Positions 17,842-25,041 of a DNA stretch of 64,000 bases are shown piece by piece. The stretch lies in the NCBI GenBank assembly GCA_012416205.1, contig GCA_012416205.1_3033.2; one strand, written 5' to 3'. The translations under genes and the position numbers were made by a program. Origin of the DNA: a phage. A model generated the notes under the pieces. The model was not told the origin of the DNA and did not search any database. It was given only the letters and a program-made list of their open reading frames with translations. Each line of letters begins with the position of its first letter. Position 1 is the stretch's first letter.

Positions 17842-18806
17842 TGTATTCTTTAGAGGAATTTAATAATCAAGCAATAAACGCAGATTTCCAACGTAATAAT
17901 ATGTTTAGCTGCGTTTTTGCGACAACTCCATCAACTAAAAGCTCTTCGTTGATAAGTTCAATTAGCAACTTTTCTTATAATAACTTGGGCCTAAATTCAG
18001 ATTGGTTAGGATTGACTCAAGGTGATATTAATCAGGGAATTACCACGCTAATTACTGCTGGCACACAAAAACTGATAAGAAAATCAGGGGTTAGTAAATA
18101 TCTTATTGGTGCCATGAGTCAACGTACAGTTCAAAGTTTATTAGGCTCATTTACAGTTGGTACATATTTAATTGACTTCTTTAACATGGCATATAACTCA
18201 TCTGGATTGATGATATATTCTGTAAAAATGCCAGAGAATAGATTATCCTATGAAACTGACTGGAACTACAATTCTCCTAATATTCGCATAACCGGGAGAG
18301 AATTAGACCCTTTGGTTATTTCATTTAGAATGGATTCAGAAGCTTGTAACTATCGTGCAATGCAAGACTGGGTTAACTCCGTTCAAGACCCAGTAACTGG
18401 ATTACGCGCTTTACCGCAAGATGTCGAGGCAGATATTCAGGTTAATCTTCATTCTCGTAATGGATTGCCTCATACTGCGGTGATGTTCACCGGATGCATT
18501 CCAGTGTCAGTGAGCGCTCCTGAGTTATCATATGATGGAGATAACCAAATAACTACATTTGATGTTACTTTTGCGTATAGAGTGATGCAGGCTGGAGCAG
18601 TTGATAGGCAAGCTGCGCTTGAATGGCTTGAATCTGCTGCTATAAATGGTATTCAAAGCGTTCTCGGAAATAGTGGAGGTGTTACTGGACTATCTAATTC
18701 GCTTTCACGACTCAGTAGATTAGGGGGAACTGCAGGAAGCATTTCAAACATTAATACTATGACAGGAATTGTCAATTCGCAAAGTAAAATATTAGGAGCA
18801 ATATAA
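17841..18806 (+). CDS. 54: Baseplate tail-tube junction protein gp54
   Basis: 321 aa, T4 gp54 length and position. Confidence 0.9.
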   Translation: MYSLEEFNNQAINADFQRNNMFSCVFATTPSTKSSSLISSISNFSYNNLGLNSDWLGLTQGDINQGITTLITAGTQKLIRKSGVSKYLIGAMSQRTVQSLLGSFTVGTYLIDFFNMAYNSSGLMIYSVKMPENRLSYETDWNYNSPNIRITGRELDPLVISFRMDSEACNYRAMQDWVNSVQDPVTGLRALPQDVEADIQVNLHSRNGLPHTAVMFTGCIPVSVSAPELSYDGDNQITTFDVTFAYRVMQAGAVDRQAALEWLESAAINGIQSVLGNSGGVTGLSNSLSRLSRLGGTAGSISNINTMTGIVNSQSKILGAI

Positions 18807-18810
18807 CAAT

Positions 18811-18828
18811 GGGGACCGAAAGGTCCCC
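18811..18828. terminator. Bidirectional hairpin GGGGACC-GAAA-GGTCCCC between 54 and alt.-3
   Basis: Perfect 7-bp stem with GAAA loop and flanking T-runs, between convergent stops. Confidence 0.55.
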
Positions 18829-18834
18829 ATATTT

Positions 18835-19125
18835 TTATTTACGGAATGAAATAAAAGCAGCAACTGAAGCAACTAAACTGTCTTCAATATAAACCTCAAT
18901 TTTTACCGGAGCTTCTGACTCAAATTTACCTGTTACTACACCTTGGAAAATACTTTCAGTCTGTTCTGGCTTTGAAAAATTTTCAGAAGGAAAAATTCCG
19001 AACTTTTTATCTGTTCCAAAAATTTTGATAAATTCATCGTAAACTGCTTCATTAAAAGCATTATCAGCAGGAATAACGCCTTCAACTACAAGTTCTTGAC
19101 CTAAAAAGCGCAAAGAAGATTTCAT
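18835..19125 (-). CDS. Hypothetical protein (T4 alt.-3 position)
   Basis: 96 aa ORF between gene 54 and the Alt paralogs. Confidence 0.6.
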   Translation of the reverse strand: MKSSLRFLGQELVVEGVIPADNAFNEAVYDEFIKIFGTDKKFGIFPSENFSKPEQTESIFQGVVTGKFESEAPVKIEVYIEDSLVASVAAFISFRK

Positions 19126-19133
19126 TTTGTGTT

Positions 19134-19186
19134 CCTCATGTTATGTCAGTAAGACTACTATAACACAACACGAGGGACTTGTAAAC
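19134..19186 (-). promoter_or_regulatory. Early-promoter-like GTTTAC(18)TATAGT element embedded in a 9-bp inverted repeat that includes the RBS (copy 1)
   Basis: 53-bp block repeated with one mismatch at 34953-35005; arms CCTC(G/A)TGTT and AACATGAGG flank the -10 element; 3' arm contains the GAGG Shine-Dalgarno. Confidence 0.5.
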
Positions 19187-21243
19187 TACATTTTGAACTT
19201 TTTAGACATTCCGTTGATGTTAACCAAAGAAGCCAAGATTTGAGAAACTTCGTTTTCCTCTTCTTTTGATTCTTCTACAAGGAATTGATTAAATCCAGCC
19301 ATTGGACGAACTTCACCAGTTTCCATTAGATGGTCGCCATCATATACCGATTCCTCTAATTGTTCAGAAGGAGGAACGATTGTACCTTCTATTAGATACT
19401 TGTTATAAGCAGTTTCTTTCATAAAGTACGTGCTCACTTTATTAATCTTCAGTAAAATTCCACGCGGTAGAATAACTTCAGCTTCTGATGGAAATCCTGA
19501 TAAATGACCTGGAACGATAACTTTGATTCGCTCAGCTCCTTTAATTACCATACCCACGCTAGTTTCAGCATCTTCATTAGCATATGTAGAATGACTACCC
19601 ATATGCATCAAATCTTCTGCATCAACGGAACCTTCTCCTTCGCCAGAAAATACTGCGCCGGAATCATCTAGAGCCATATAGTTTTTACCATGCTCACCGA
19701 AGATATTTGGTTTAAGCGATGTGGATACGAAGTTCTTGAAATAGAACATTTTATTTTCAATGTTATGACGCAAAGTTTTAAAGGTAACTTCTTGTCCACG
19801 GTAAAGTGTAGTTCCTGGAGGAAGAACTGAACCTTTAGCGAATGCAGAATCAAGCGTCTCAATATGTTTAATAGCTCGTTCCATATATTCTTCACGGGTA
19901 GAATCTGGTTTACCCAAAAGGAACGAGTTCATTTCAACATATGAATCTGCACAATAATCTTCAATTACATCAGACTCAGCCTGAGTTAATCCTTTTGGAG
20001 TTACTTCAGTACTTGCATATTCATATGCCTGAGCGGCAGATTCATTAATCAATTTATAAATGCCATTCATGACAAATTGAATAATAGCTGTCTTTTCATC
20101 TGGTGTAGCTTTAGAACCTTTAACTAAATCATTGATAATTTTCTTAATAACATCAAAGCTATTAGAAATATTAATGTCAGCAAGATCGCTTAAAATTTTA
20201 TCAGTTTTATAATCAAAGAATTCTTTATTCTTTAAATATTCTTGAGAACCTTGATATGTTATATCGCTCTGCAGCTTGATAGATGGATCGCGTAAACGTG
20301 CATGGGCCAATGCAATATGATTTCGGAAGTTTTCTAGTTCATAATCGTTAGATTTAAAACGAGAAGCACTTCTCATACCACCGATAGCTCCTTTGCTAAA
20401 GTTTGAACCAATCTGAATAACGCCAGAGTTCATCGGACCTTCTGCTTTATATACCGGAACTTTAGATTCAAACTCTTGATATTTCTTAGCAGCGAAGCTA
20501 TCACCCTGAAGTGAAGCATCGACAGTAGAATATTGAGCTTGTGCTGCTAATCGACGACTAATTTTAGTTTTCTGAATAACAGCTTGATCCGTGCGCTTAT
20601 CATTTTCTAAGGCAATAGAAGCAGCAACAGCAACAGCTTTAGGAACAGCATTACCTGTTTTAACATCCACATAAACATCACCAACCTTTGATTCAACTTT
20701 TGTGAATAACTCAGTTGAAATAGGAGGTACACCTGGAATGTCTTCTAAATTGGCATTTTTACGGTAAACCATAATATATGCATACTTTTTATCATAATCC
20801 CAGATTTCCTTTAAAAGAACATATCGACCTGCTCCTTTAGTACGTACTAAACGGTCAGCAATAACTTGCATTTGACGAGCTGCGCCATTTGTTTTACTTT
20901 TTAGTACGCGGAATAAGCATGCATCAATTTTATACTGTTTCATTGTTTGAAGAGCAGTATCAAAAACGGCATTAATGACACCAATTGGATTTCCACCTAA
21001 GTTTTTAAGTTTAACTAATGATAGTTTCTCATTGACACCTATCATTACGATATGCATCATTTTATCGCCTGGCTTAACGTTTTTATTCGTATCACCGCCA
21101 GAGGTGTATGTACAAAATCTAAATCCAGGAAGCACGCTTTCTTCACCGGCTTGAATAGCAAAAATTTGAGGTATTTTATGCTTAGGATTTAAGTTAACAA
21201 CCGGCGCCGAAGCGCCGTCAAATAATTCTGTAATAAGTTCCAT
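19186..21243 (-). CDS. Alt-like ADP-ribosyltransferase paralogue (T4 alt.-2 position)
   Basis: 685 aa; N-terminal ~220 aa and C-terminal domain (YRGQ, FVSTSL, EAEVILPRG: R-S-E ART motifs) parallel the adjacent alt product. Confidence 0.85.
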   Translation of the reverse strand: MELITELFDGASAPVVNLNPKHKIPQIFAIQAGEESVLPGFRFCTYTSGGDTNKNVKPGDKMMHIVMIGVNEKLSLVKLKNLGGNPIGVINAVFDTALQTMKQYKIDACLFRVLKSKTNGAARQMQVIADRLVRTKGAGRYVLLKEIWDYDKKYAYIMVYRKNANLEDIPGVPPISTELFTKVESKVGDVYVDVKTGNAVPKAVAVAASIALENDKRTDQAVIQKTKISRRLAAQAQYSTVDASLQGDSFAAKKYQEFESKVPVYKAEGPMNSGVIQIGSNFSKGAIGGMRSASRFKSNDYELENFRNHIALAHARLRDPSIKLQSDITYQGSQEYLKNKEFFDYKTDKILSDLADINISNSFDVIKKIINDLVKGSKATPDEKTAIIQFVMNGIYKLINESAAQAYEYASTEVTPKGLTQAESDVIEDYCADSYVEMNSFLLGKPDSTREEYMERAIKHIETLDSAFAKGSVLPPGTTLYRGQEVTFKTLRHNIENKMFYFKNFVSTSLKPNIFGEHGKNYMALDDSGAVFSGEGEGSVDAEDLMHMGSHSTYANEDAETSVGMVIKGAERIKVIVPGHLSGFPSEAEVILPRGILLKINKVSTYFMKETAYNKYLIEGTIVPPSEQLEESVYDGDHLMETGEVRPMAGFNQFLVEESKEEENEVSQILASLVNINGMSKKFKM

Positions 21244-21246
21244 GAT

Positions 21247-23340
21247 TTATCCTTGAACGAACTTGTAAGGCATGTTTGTAATATCTATGCAAGACGCAAT
21301 AATTCCAAGAGATGATTCTACTTTCTGTTTAACATTTGATGAAACAAATGATGCAAAGTCAACTCTGTCTTCTATTTCAATATCACCTGTCATTGCAACC
21401 AATTCACCAGTTTCCATTAAATGGTCTCCGTCATAGATTACCGATTCGGTGAGTTCTTCGGTGGTCATAACTTCAGCTTGAATGAGTTTTGTATTATTAG
21501 ACGTGGTTCCGTCATTATTAGAAGCATCAGTTATTTTATTAACTTTGACCATCAATCCGCGCGGTAGAATAACTTCAGCTTCTGTTGCTATTCCGAGATT
21601 TCCTGGATATACAACATTAACTTTATGAGCTCCATCAATTGCCCATCCTATTTGAACTTTAACGTATTCAGGATTTTCTTTATACGCTCTTATTTCGTTT
21701 GGATTAATAGTTATTCCTTCTTCATTTTTATCAACTGTTAATTCATTGCGAGCTTCTGGTTCTAAAAGACCAATACCAGCATGTGTAATTCCAAAACGTC
21801 CAAAAATGATAGGAGTTAAAGAAGTAGATACAAAATTTCTGAAGTAGAACACTTTATTTTTAACTAGTGCTTCGTATATAGGAGCAGTCATACTTTGAGC
21901 ACGATAAACTGTGATGCCTTCCGGTATGCGGTCACCATTTTCAAAAGCTGAATCTAAGTTATTTATAGCAGATTCAATTTCTTTTTCACTCATTACATCA
22001 TATCGTTCTGGATTGTAACGACCTAAAAGAAGATTATTGATGTCAGTATATCCTGAACCGCAATATTCTCTAATGCCACGCTTTTGTGATGGAGTATATT
22101 TAGAACCATCGCGGGCAATAGTAATATCAATCATTGGACCAGCACCAATTCCAGAAAAACTGTAAATCATTCGTTTGAGGAATTTAGTTTTTGCTGCGTT
22201 CCAGGAATTTTTAGTTATTTCTTCCCAGACTTCATCTGGTTGTCCTTTACGATTTTTATTATGATTAGCAAGCCATTTATCTTTATAATCTTCAAAGAAT
22301 TGATTTACAGCTGCTGCGTATTTCTCTAAACATTTTATTGAAGTAGTTGGTTCATTTTTAATTGCATTAAAAATTACTTCTTTAATTTTTTCTGAAACTT
22401 CACCGACTTGACTCATTGGAAAGAATTTATAATCATAGTGAAGTTCATCTGCCGTTCCTTCAGCAATAATTTTTGCTGCCTTTGTTTTAGAAGCTAATGA
22501 ATTAATTCCAATTTTCATTTCTTCTGCTTCGGGAATTAAAGGTGCAGTAGCTGGTTTATTAAAATTAGCTGCTGTAGATTCATACTTCTGGAATAATTCA
22601 CTTTCAAATCTAGAAGATTCCAATGACTGACTTTGTGCAATTGCTCTACGGGAAATTTTAACTTTAACGATTACAGCTTGGTCAGAACGTTTATCATTTT
22701 CTTGCGCAATAGATGCTGCAATTGCCTCATTTTTAGTTACTTGGGCTCCAGTATCTTTATTGATATAAACATCACCGACTTTCGATTCAACTTTAGTAAA
22801 GAGCTCGGTACTAATTTCCGGAACTCCTGGAATGTCTTCTAGTGATACATTTTTGCGATGTATAAGAATATATGCATACTTTTTATCATAATCCCAGAGT
22901 TCCTTAAGAAGGACGTATCTGCCACCTGAACGACTACGGATAAGTCTATCAGCAATAACTTGAATTTGTCGAGCTTGACCAGCGGTTTTAGACTTAAGAA
23001 TACGAAGCATACAAGCATCAATTTTATACTGACGCATTGTTTGCATTGCAACAGTAAAAACTGAATTGATATAATTAATTGGGCTTGGACCAAGACCTTT
23101 TAATTTAGCAATTGAACCTTTAGCAGTTAATGTAAAAGGAACAATATGCATCATTTTATCGCCCATCTTTAAATCGCGATTAGTATCACCTCCAGATGTA
23201 TAGGTACATAAACGAAAGCCTGGCTGTTCAATTGCATCATCAACGTGAACTGAAAAAATTTGCGGTATTTTCTTCTTTGGATTTAAGTTTGTAATCGGAA
23301 GAGTAGTATCTTCGTCAAATAATTCTGTAATAAGTTCCAT
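21247..23340 (-). CDS. alt: RNA polymerase ADP-ribosyltransferase Alt
   Basis: 697 aa from the second Met (better RBS spacing); recognisable Alt N-terminus MELITELFDEDTT; ART motifs YRAQ, FVSTSL, EAEVILPRG. Confidence 0.9.
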   Translation of the reverse strand: MELITELFDEDTTLPITNLNPKKKIPQIFSVHVDDAIEQPGFRLCTYTSGGDTNRDLKMGDKMMHIVPFTLTAKGSIAKLKGLGPSPINYINSVFTVAMQTMRQYKIDACMLRILKSKTAGQARQIQVIADRLIRSRSGGRYVLLKELWDYDKKYAYILIHRKNVSLEDIPGVPEISTELFTKVESKVGDVYINKDTGAQVTKNEAIAASIAQENDKRSDQAVIVKVKISRRAIAQSQSLESSRFESELFQKYESTAANFNKPATAPLIPEAEEMKIGINSLASKTKAAKIIAEGTADELHYDYKFFPMSQVGEVSEKIKEVIFNAIKNEPTTSIKCLEKYAAAVNQFFEDYKDKWLANHNKNRKGQPDEVWEEITKNSWNAAKTKFLKRMIYSFSGIGAGPMIDITIARDGSKYTPSQKRGIREYCGSGYTDINNLLLGRYNPERYDVMSEKEIESAINNLDSAFENGDRIPEGITVYRAQSMTAPIYEALVKNKVFYFRNFVSTSLTPIIFGRFGITHAGIGLLEPEARNELTVDKNEEGITINPNEIRAYKENPEYVKVQIGWAIDGAHKVNVVYPGNLGIATEAEVILPRGLMVKVNKITDASNNDGTTSNNTKLIQAEVMTTEELTESVIYDGDHLMETGELVAMTGDIEIEDRVDFASFVSSNVKQKVESSLGIIASCIDITNMPYKFVQG

Positions 23341-23363
23341 CATAGCCTCTCTAGTGTTTATTC

Positions 23364-23371
23364 TATTTATA
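23364..23371 (-). promoter_or_regulatory. Late promoter box TATAAATA (minus strand) upstream of alt
   Basis: Reverse complement TATAAATA about 20 bp upstream of the alt start. Confidence 0.55.
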
Positions 23372-23378
23372 AAATTAA

Positions 23379-23392
23379 AGGCCCGAAGGCCT
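23379..23392 (-). terminator. Hairpin GGCC-CGAA-GGCC upstream of the alt promoter
   Basis: Short GC inverted repeat directly after the stop of ORF 23393-23581. Confidence 0.4.
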
Positions 23393-23581
23393 TTAGTAAT
23401 CTAGTGGTAAGAGAGTACGATATATTTCAAACTTTGGTCCTTTTTCATAGGCATCAAATGTTTCTGTAAATTTATTATAAGCGTATGCATCTACAAATTC
23501 GAGAATGACTTGTGATACAGAAGTAGAAACATCTCCGCCTTCTTTTTGAGCAATGACAATTGTTTCTAAGTAAGCTTTCAT
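23393..23581 (-). CDS. Hypothetical 62-aa protein between alt and gene 30
   Basis: ORF overlapping the gene 30 stop by 4 bp. Confidence 0.5.
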   Translation of the reverse strand: MKAYLETIVIAQKEGGDVSTSVSQVILEFVDAYAYNKFTETFDAYEKGPKFEIYRTLLPLDY

Positions 23582-25041
23582 AAACCAGTTACCTCATGAA
23601 AATCACCAAATACATCCTCGAATGTATTAGCTTTAGTTTTATCTTCACGTAAACGAATCGCAATCGGAAGAAATAATTTAACGTAATCAGTGCGGCCATC
23701 AGATTTTAACCAACCGTTGCATTCGCACTCTAGAATTTTTCCAATATAATAATTTTGGTTTTCCATAATGCGAGTACGGTCAAGTTCATGTGATTTTACG
23801 CCGGCTTTGTCTTTTAAGCCTGAACCAGCATTTACTTTAATTTTTCCACACTCTGACTCAAGAATAAATCCACCTGCTTTAGTAGGGTCTTTACGGTGAG
23901 GATAAATTCCTACAATTTTTAAATCAACATCAATTACTTCTTTAAATTTATAGAGATTTTTTGAACGGGCATTTTCCCATAACCCATCAACGTTTTTGAG
24001 AATAATACCTTCAAGACCTTGATCAATATACTTTTTGTAAATTACCTTAGCTTCATCTAGGTTATTTACTACCTGGTTTTCAATTAAAATTACTTTATCA
24101 TAGCCTGATGTCATTTGTTCTAGTTTAGAAAAACGTACATCATACTTTAAACGAAATGCAGGAAGACCATATATTTCTACTAATGGAACATAATCCCAGA
24201 CCTGAAACTTCATGCATTGTGCTTCTTTTTCGGAAATGGTTCCCTTTAAAGATTTATTAGCGATTCCATTAGAAGCAGTACGTGATTCAGCTACTTCGAC
24301 GAATTCTTTAGCTTTACTAATTTCAGGATAAGCATTAAAAAGAAAATCTAGGCCTTCTGGCTCCTTTTTAACTTGCTCATGGTATACCAATTCGCCATCA
24401 ATTAACACACCTTCTGGATGAATCTGGCGGGCTTCAGCGGTCATTTTAATTAACTCTTCCTTAAGAAGATCTAATCCTAGATATTCATTACCAGCTCGTG
24501 ATAAAAGACGAACATCATCTAATTCATCACCTCTGACTTCAGCAAAGCACCGAGCTCCATCAGCTTTTAACTGGGCAAAAGCTGGAAATTTGATATTCTT
24601 ATTAATGCCTTTTTCATCATAAGAACTTGCAAGCATTTGAGGTTGTTCAGGAATTAAACCTGGCCAAACTTTGTTTGCAATAGATACTGAAGCACCGCAT
24701 TCAAGGTCTCGCATCATCACTCGACGCAAAACTTCAACATCATCTTTTTTACCATCGGTGATATATCCAATTAATTCCTCAATTGCCGCATTTCCAGTCA
24801 ATTTCCGAGTAGCTAACGTGAATTCAATGAAGTCAAGCATATCGGTAAGAGTCAACATTCCAAAACTCTGGGTAGCAATACCCGGTTTAGGCCATTTCTT
24901 GATATAATACTGTAACCCACGAGAATAAGTCAGACGATATACTCGTTTAAGCAATTCATTATCTTTGTTCTTTTCAAGAATTGCTTGCTTCTGCTTAGTT
25001 GAACCAATAGATGCTATTTCGTTCAGAATTTTAAGAATCAT
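23578..25041 (-). CDS. 30: ATP-dependent DNA ligase gp30
   Basis: 487 aa (T4 DNA ligase length); adenylation motif KADGAR. Confidence 0.93.
   Translation of the reverse strand: MILKILNEIASIGSTKQKQAILEKNKDNELLKRVYRLTYSRGLQYYIKKWPKPGIATQSFGMLTLTDMLDFIEFTLATRKLTGNAAIEELIGYITDGKKDDVEVLRRVMMRDLECGASVSIANKVWPGLIPEQPQMLASSYDEKGINKNIKFPAFAQLKADGARCFAEVRGDELDDVRLLSRAGNEYLGLDLLKEELIKMTAEARQIHPEGVLIDGELVYHEQVKKEPEGLDFLFNAYPEISKAKEFVEVAESRTASNGIANKSLKGTISEKEAQCMKFQVWDYVPLVEIYGLPAFRLKYDVRFSKLEQMTSGYDKVILIENQVVNNLDEAKVIYKKYIDQGLEGIILKNVDGLWENARSKNLYKFKEVIDVDLKIVGIYPHRKDPTKAGGFILESECGKIKVNAGSGLKDKAGVKSHELDRTRIMENQNYYIGKILECECNGWLKSDGRTDYVKLFLPIAIRLREDKTKANTFEDVFGDFHEVTGL

Follow-up and report, generated by a model that had tools for sequence, protein, structure and literature searches.

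Two tandem Alt-like ADP-ribosyltransferase genes in a T4-like phage, one of which persists in T4 only as a deleted remnant

Introduction

When a T4-like phage carries two Alt-like ADP-ribosyltransferase (ART) genes side by side, does it deliver one enzyme in a larger dose, or two enzymes that act on different host proteins? We addressed this question in a 64,000-nucleotide (nt) stretch of phage DNA (NCBI GenBank assembly GCA_012416205.1, contig GCA_012416205.1_3033.2; this whole stretch is called the window below). Two neighbouring genes on its minus strand are concerned, gene A (21247..23340, 697 aa) and gene B (19186..21243, 685 aa). We found that the window belongs to a Tequatrovirus (T4-like phage), that A and B go back to an old tandem duplication of alt, that A is the positional orthologue of T4 alt, and that B is the intact form of the sequence known in T4 as alt.-1/alt.-2. 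The two genes are likely to encode two co-transcribed, capsid-packaged, arginine-specific mono-ARTs with different effector modules.

Alt is a textbook example of an enzyme that is injected with phage DNA to reprogram the host, and it is reported to modify MazF. Nearly all knowledge of Alt comes from T4, which is the exception at this locus: T4 has a remnant of B, whereas T2, T6 and about 400 sequenced relatives have B intact. Its deletion from laboratory T4 is the reason why B has been left unstudied. Should B have its own targets, T-even infection would include, within its first seconds, a host modification that has so far escaped study; B may also be a confounder when T4 is compared with T2 or T6 on defence systems. 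The target of B is a testable question, and the value of the locus lies there and not in a new kind of system.

At the annotation level the gene pair is already known, and it is the common, expected state for this phage group. RefSeq records carry it as 'Alt-like RNA polymerase ADP-ribosyltransferase (x2)', the Sf23 record has the wording 'distinct from ... T4 Alt', and the T4 GenBank note calls alt.-1/alt.-2 a duplication of the start of alt. Tandem Alt-like genes between ligase and gene 54, as in the window, form Alt arrays in Tevenvirinae with a copy number of 1 to 3. Alt paralogues were described in T4, RB49 (ORF183c) and 44RR (ORF187c/188c) by Nolan et al. (2006; PMC1524935). What we add is modest: the exact deletion in T4, a quantified constraint on B, both protease motifs in B, and relationships that are incongruent from domain to domain.

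Results and Discussion

A and B Are Old Paralogues With Differing Centres

The two proteins are 41% identical over their full length (BLASTP, E 2e-163), a similarity far above chance. In region alignments the identity is about 67-68% in the N-terminal residues 1-238, 19% in the centre (239-415), 32% in the ART domain and 36% in the C-terminal tail. A sequence-only reading of this DNA had described two neighbouring minus-strand open reading frames (ORFs) of 685 and 697 aa as paralogues that share a conserved N-terminal region, differ strongly in their centres and are separated by 3 nt. The ORF list places both frames at the positions given above, the gap is exact (TAA-atc-ATG), and the paralogy is borne out by the 67% identity of the N-terminal regions and by the full-length alignment. 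The difference between the centres is confirmed too: besides the 19% identity, a profile-profile comparison (hhalign) of A-type and B-type central regions detected no homology (probability 0.9%).

In every region the two genes have reached saturation at synonymous sites (synonymous divergence, dS, 1.2-1.6); the duplication is therefore old and has escaped recent homogenisation. Recent gene conversion was considered as the source of the similar N-termini and rejected, since dS in this region is 1.26 and likewise saturated. Older concerted evolution, or co-adaptation to the head, would be compatible with the N-domains, which cluster by genome (see below).

Both Proteins Have an Intact R-S-E Active Site

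Protein A consists of an N-terminal alpha/beta domain (residues 1-225), a helical centre (about 248-410), an ART domain (about 413-632) and a propeptide-like C-terminal tail (633-697). B is built of the same four parts, with the ART domain at about 415-625 in the models. The catalytic residues are R480, S505-T-S507 and E587-A-E589 in A and R482, S507-T-S509 and E587-A-E589 in B, and they are invariant across a 19-sequence family alignment. The C-terminal motifs quoted in the sequence-only reading (YRAQ/YRGQ, FVSTSL and EAEVILPRG) were all found, and its proposal of a second ART, which a broken triad in the second copy would have undermined, stands with the triad intact in B. Both proteins match the Pfam family PF03496 (ADPrib_exo_Tox) far above its gathering cut-off of 23.4 bits (A, 129 bits, E 1.8e-37; B, 71.9 bits, E 5.8e-20) and cover the whole profile of phrog_802, 'Alt-like RNA polymerase ADP-ribosyltransferase' (A, E 2e-273; B, E 9e-257).

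R-S-E ARTs with an E-x-E motif are specific for arginine, and the E-x-E form suggests that A and B are likewise arginine-specific mono-ADP-ribosyltransferases. The second Glu of E-x-E in both proteins aligns with E577 of T4 Alt (numbering checked), whose replacement by Ala gives a catalytically dead mutant (PMC11404850). The numbering in that paper counts from an upstream in-frame ATG, which is present in both T4 and the window.

AlphaFold2 (AF2) models of the two proteins have similar mean predicted local distance difference test (pLDDT) values (B, 73.6; A, 72.2) and the same domain layout, with a low-confidence linker after the N-domain, an all-helical centre (about 250-410) and a low-confidence, largely disordered C-terminal tail. 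In a Foldseek search of PDB with the whole B model, the best match was Vis (4xzk, E 1e-7, template modelling score on the target 0.63), and C3bot, Certhrax, CDTa, iota(-like) and VIP2 ARTs were also matched, with E up to 5e-5. All these matches cover the ART part only, and none was found in PDB to the N-terminal or central domains. With sequence alone, B gave zero matches in PDB, and A gave weak phmmer matches to CDTa and iota (E 5e-4 to 1e-2).

The C3-like, VIP2, iota/CDTa and Vis enzymes, all R-S-E ARTs of PF03496, share with A and B the catalytic fold and the R, S-T-S and E-x-E motifs. They are secreted bacterial toxins with other delivery domains, however, whereas the Alt N-domain is found only in T4-like Alt proteins. 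T4 ModA and ModB, two host-takeover enzymes from this phage group, are members of the same R-S-E ART clade. They are ARTs of about 200 aa that are made early, lack the N-terminal and central domains and are not packaged (PMC5512222). A and B are not of the ModA/ModB type, being multi-domain proteins of 697 and 685 aa encoded behind a late promoter.

The Effector Regions Differ Between A, B, and T4 Alt

The centres of A and B (about 180 aa each) are both predicted to be all-helical in the AF2 models. Since they share this character and have no detectable homology, extreme divergence and module replacement are indistinguishable here. C3-like ARTs recognise their targets with the ARTT loop, which is the turn immediately preceding E-x-E. 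The stretch from S-T-S to E-x-E (67-78 residues), which includes this turn, is unrelated among A, B and T4 Alt.

Gene A itself differs from T4 alt in the same regions. Compared with T4 Alt (NP_049811), the capsid-packaged, injected NAD+:arginine mono-ADP-ribosyltransferase, A is 99.6% identical in the N-terminal 238 aa, 33% in the centre, 61% in the ART domain and 94% in the last 65 aa, and the values for the centre and the ART domain indicate that A is a different effector allele from that of T4. The promoter, the start context and both motifs for the gp21 protease are the same in A and in T4 alt. B is 43% identical to T4 Alt overall and has the whole architecture in common with it, whereas the centre of B has no sequence relationship to the centre of either Alt allele. 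Given the differences in the central domain and the active-site loops, the target sets of A and B are most likely partly different.

Effector Modules Are Exchanged at the Alt Locus

Natural recombinants separate the N-terminal part of these genes from the rest. Phage ECML-134 (locus L003, 2601-4661) has a single Alt-like gene, of which the first ~450 nt are A-like (97-100% identity) and the remainder is B-like (95-100%). Unequal recombination between the N-terminal regions of A and B presumably produced this chimera and would have deleted one gene-length. Two protein clusters, P0005 and P0006, are similar chimeras with the N-terminus of A and the effector of B. The existence of such recombinants supports the view that the N-domains of A and B are functionally interchangeable.

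A second case crosses the genus boundary. In Dhakavirus PSD2002 (locus L008, 1012-7124) the same locus is occupied by a tandem array of three Alt-like genes. Between the middle copy and window A, identity reaches 95% in the ART domain and 65% in the centre, and only 47% in the N-domain; at the nucleotide level the two are 80% identical over nt 681-1943 of A. The effector allele of A is nearer to this copy than to the allele of T4. This pattern suggests an exchange of the effector module between genera, with putative breakpoints near aa 227 and aa 648 of A. The last copy of PSD2002, which adjoins alt.-3, is of the B type (centre 47% and ART domain 59% identical to B), so that a B-type effector is carried there as a distinct type beside the A-type and third-type copies. 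Identity among N-domains is 68% within the window and 62-67% within PSD2002, against 43-47% between the two, so that they group by genome, while effector modules group by type across genera. From these domain-wise groupings we conclude that the Alt locus behaves as a genome-matched delivery domain combined with exchangeable ART effector modules.

The N-domain is narrowly distributed. Homologues carry the precomputed Pfam assignment PF26846 for it, and among 1.84 billion proteins it forms 69 representative clusters, always at the N-terminus of proteins of about 600-712 aa. Eight of the ten distant N-domain proteins tested also carry an ART domain of the same family. A role as a general polymorphic-toxin scaffold was rejected in view of the small number of clusters and of these shared ART domains. 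The Alt N-domain is also matched distantly by two shorter proteins, P0183 (485 aa, E 3e-8) and P0184 (541 aa, E 8e-7), and the rest of each gave no Pfam ART match; they may combine the Alt-type delivery domain with a different or highly diverged effector.

These comparisons bear on the first alternative, that B is a redundant duplicate which has the same targets as Alt and is kept for dosage, giving more ART molecules per head. A and B are indeed alike in architecture, active-site motifs, promoter and cleavage motifs, and B was lost from T4 without obvious harm. In a copy kept purely for dosage, however, gene conversion should preserve the similarity, whereas the centres of A and B have no detectable homology, their ART domains are only 32% identical with unrelated S-T-S to E-x-E loops, and dS is saturated at more than 1.2 although B is held at a ratio of nonsynonymous to synonymous divergence (dN/dS) of 0.02-0.06. 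The B-type effector is also kept as a distinct type in Dhakavirus. We therefore regard redundancy for dosage as unlikely. A different target for B is suggested by the unrelated centres and the differing loops before E-x-E, and the strong purifying selection on B strengthens this view.

Packaging and Processing Signals Are Present in Both Proteins

Each T4 head contains about 40 copies of Alt, which are injected along with the DNA (PMC9026906). By mass spectrometry T4 Alt is cut by gp21 after ITE-6 and LTE-619, with the loss of 63 C-terminal residues and a product of 68.2 kDa (PMC5694885); residues 7-619 compute to 68.2 kDa, as reported. Both A and B have the motif ITE-6, and near the C-terminus A has LTE-632 and B has LEE-631, in each case an L-x-E motif followed by the invariant SV(I)YDGDHLMETGE. 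The tail past the cut site is disordered and acidic in A and B alike, as judged from the AF2 models and the sequence. Cleavage at these sites would remove the acidic tails (pI 4.2-4.5) and leave predicted mature forms of 70.1 kDa for A and 69.0 kDa for B. By analogy with T4 Alt, B is probably packaged and cleaved by gp21. A functional study of B (activity, packaging or targets) was not found in the literature, and the published proteomics that we checked did not resolve the A and B paralogues.

A Single Late Promoter Probably Serves Both Genes

A T4-type late promoter box, TATAAATA, lies upstream of A (23364..23371, minus strand). It is kept at the same position in all seven related loci compared, and none of the seven has TATAAATA directly before B. 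Immediately upstream, at the end of alt.1, a terminator-like hairpin AAAGGCCTTCGGGCCTTT with a T-run (23376..23395, minus strand) shields the alt pair from upstream transcription. Gene A begins with ATGATG, as in T4. Its Shine-Dalgarno sequence GAGAGG (23346..23351, minus strand) precedes the first ATG by 2 nt and the second by 5 nt. The annotated start of T4 Alt (MELITELFD) corresponds to the second of these, at 23340; use of the in-frame ATG at 23343 would give a protein of 698 aa (ORF 21247-23343).

At the junction of A and B (21244..21254, minus strand) a Shine-Dalgarno sequence AAGGA (21254-21250) overlaps the end of A and is followed by the TAA stop codon (21249-21247), the 3-nt spacer and the ATG of B (21243-21241). 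Neither a promoter nor a terminator was found between A and B in the window sequence. The sequence-only reading had proposed that the genes are co-transcribed and that only the upstream copy has an obvious late promoter. Co-transcription fits the single conserved late promoter in the window and the seven related loci, and late co-transcription of A and B is the best reading of this arrangement. The second part of the claim needs a correction: the box at 23364-23371 is there, but a further perfect copy of TATAAATA is located inside A (21960..21967, minus strand), about 720 nt upstream of the start of B, where it encodes A-I-N-N. This internal copy is present in RB18, P922 and Sf23 and absent from ZN18, HP3.2, T4 and ECML-134. 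For this reason we rejected it as a conserved promoter of B, and it is probably incidental.

With these signals the expression and delivery of the two proteins can be outlined. Both genes would be transcribed late from the single TATAAATA upstream of A, and a separate ribosome-binding site, which overlaps the end of A, would serve the translation of B. The family-specific N-domain of about 225 aa would place each protein in the prohead core. If A and B follow T4 Alt, they would be built into the prohead core, trimmed by gp21 after ITE-6 and the L-x-E motif (LTE-632 in A and LEE-631 in B), and injected with the DNA, and they would modify host proteins in the first seconds of infection, with target sets that are predicted to overlap only in part.

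A second alternative holds that B is a functional ART but not a virion passenger, acting late in the producing cell or serving mainly as a structural protein in the head core. In its favour, Alt has been characterised both as an enzyme and as a protein of the head core (PMC11404850). On the other hand, B keeps the ITE-6 propeptide site, the family-specific N-domain and an L-x-E at the position where T4 Alt is cut, it stands under the late promoter of Alt, and natural chimeras join the N-terminus of A to the effector of B. We consider a non-passenger role improbable.

B Is Under Purifying Selection and Was Deleted in T4

Over the region 18800-23600 the window and Escherichia phage REP1 are 99.0% identical, and coverage of this region reaches 80% or more in 362 phage records. 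By tblastn, about 402 phage records contain B at an identity of at least 90%, and almost none has it at 60-90%; in a large protein collection the 90% protein cluster of B has 772 members. T2 and T6 both have a 2,094-nt Alt gene and an intact 2,058-nt B gene, and an Alt gene with an intact B is also found in RB18, P922, ZN18, Sf23 and HP3.2. In all 15 pairs among six phages, dN/dS of B is 0.022-0.057 at dS 0.13-0.25 (Nei-Gojobori), showing strong purifying selection on the whole B protein. For A, dN/dS within its allele class is 0.02-0.08. Two types of A allele occur in Tequatrovirus, the window/T2/T6 type in about 317 records at 90% identity or more and the T4 type in about 212 records at 60-80%; HP3.2 combines a T4-type A allele with an intact B. 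Truncated cluster representatives exist as well (P0007, P0008 and P0010) and may be contig-end fragments.

The gene order around the pair (ligase, alt.1, A, B, alt.-3, gene 54 and then gene 48, with 54 and 48 convergent) is that of T4. At the position of B, T4 has alt.-1/alt.-2 (NP_049810/NP_049809), described as 'an old duplication of the first part of gene alt'. The T4 sequence matches the start of the B region (365 nt) at 96% identity, and its last few nt with the downstream spacer at 99%. Between these parts T4 has a 1,699-bp deletion, by which codons ~118 to the end of B are gone. The deletion runs between the two copies of a 9-bp direct repeat, CTAAAAAGT, of which the upstream copy (20896..20904, minus strand) corresponds to the left endpoint and the downstream copy (19197..19205, minus strand) to the right endpoint. 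In addition, a 1-nt deletion in an A-run causes the frameshift that splits alt.-1 from alt.-2. What T4 carries is thus a remnant rather than a partial duplication, and the window has the intact gene. Since the remnant derives from an intact B by deletion and frameshift, the two-gene state is ancestral and the state of T4 derived.

The frameshifted, deleted remnant in T4 and the truncated representatives could be taken to mean that B is a decaying gene heading for loss, but this is very improbable and is effectively refuted by the selection analysis (dN/dS 0.02-0.06), with the full-length frame intact in about 400 records and the catalytic residues invariant in the 19-sequence alignment.

Several points weigh against the reading of A and B as two co-transcribed, packaged mono-ARTs with different effector modules. 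Neither B nor the A effector is essential in laboratory hosts, since T4 grows well without the former and ECML-134 grows without the latter. The internal TATAAATA might give B some independent late transcription in this phage. The AF2 models were built on shallow alignments (16-19 sequences), conservation is the one line of evidence that suggests a packaging role for the N-domain, and neither virion proteome data nor biochemistry for B was found in the searchable literature. With these points taken into account, we still favour two packaged mono-ARTs with different effector modules. A further step can be taken tentatively, with slightly less speaking for it than against: B may be a second virion-delivered ART with its own host targets, possibly a defence or translation factor rather than RNA polymerase. 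Strongly constrained in T2, T6 and about three-quarters of the Tequatroviruses, it would have stayed hidden through 60 years of T4 work owing to the deletion in the laboratory strain. More generally, the Alt locus may be a modular combination of a delivery domain and a swappable effector, with an N-domain that follows the head of its own phage and with modules of helical centre plus ART that pass from genus to genus.

Genes and Signals Flanking the Pair

Downstream of B, a T4-early-type sigma-70 promoter (GTTTACA-N17-TATAGT with TG, 10/12 consensus; 19157..19186, minus strand) starts at the last base of the B stop codon and serves alt.-3 (18835..19125, minus strand, 96 aa; DUF5498, PF17602, E 1.4e-64), the last gene of the leftward block. 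A bidirectional terminator hairpin with a perfect, GC-rich 9-bp stem and T-runs on both strands (18809..18830) lies between the convergent alt.-3 and gene 54 and likely forms the 3' end of the late alt transcript. T4 can escape the CmdTAC defence through C-terminal extensions of Alt.-3 (PMC11618068). Alt.-3 of the window has the normal length of 96 aa. On the other side of the pair, alt.1 (23393..23581, minus strand, 62 aa) matches PF24647 'Phage_blade' (E 1.9e-29) and has its stop codon inside the hairpin at 23376..23395, and the gene 30 ligase follows at 23578..25041.

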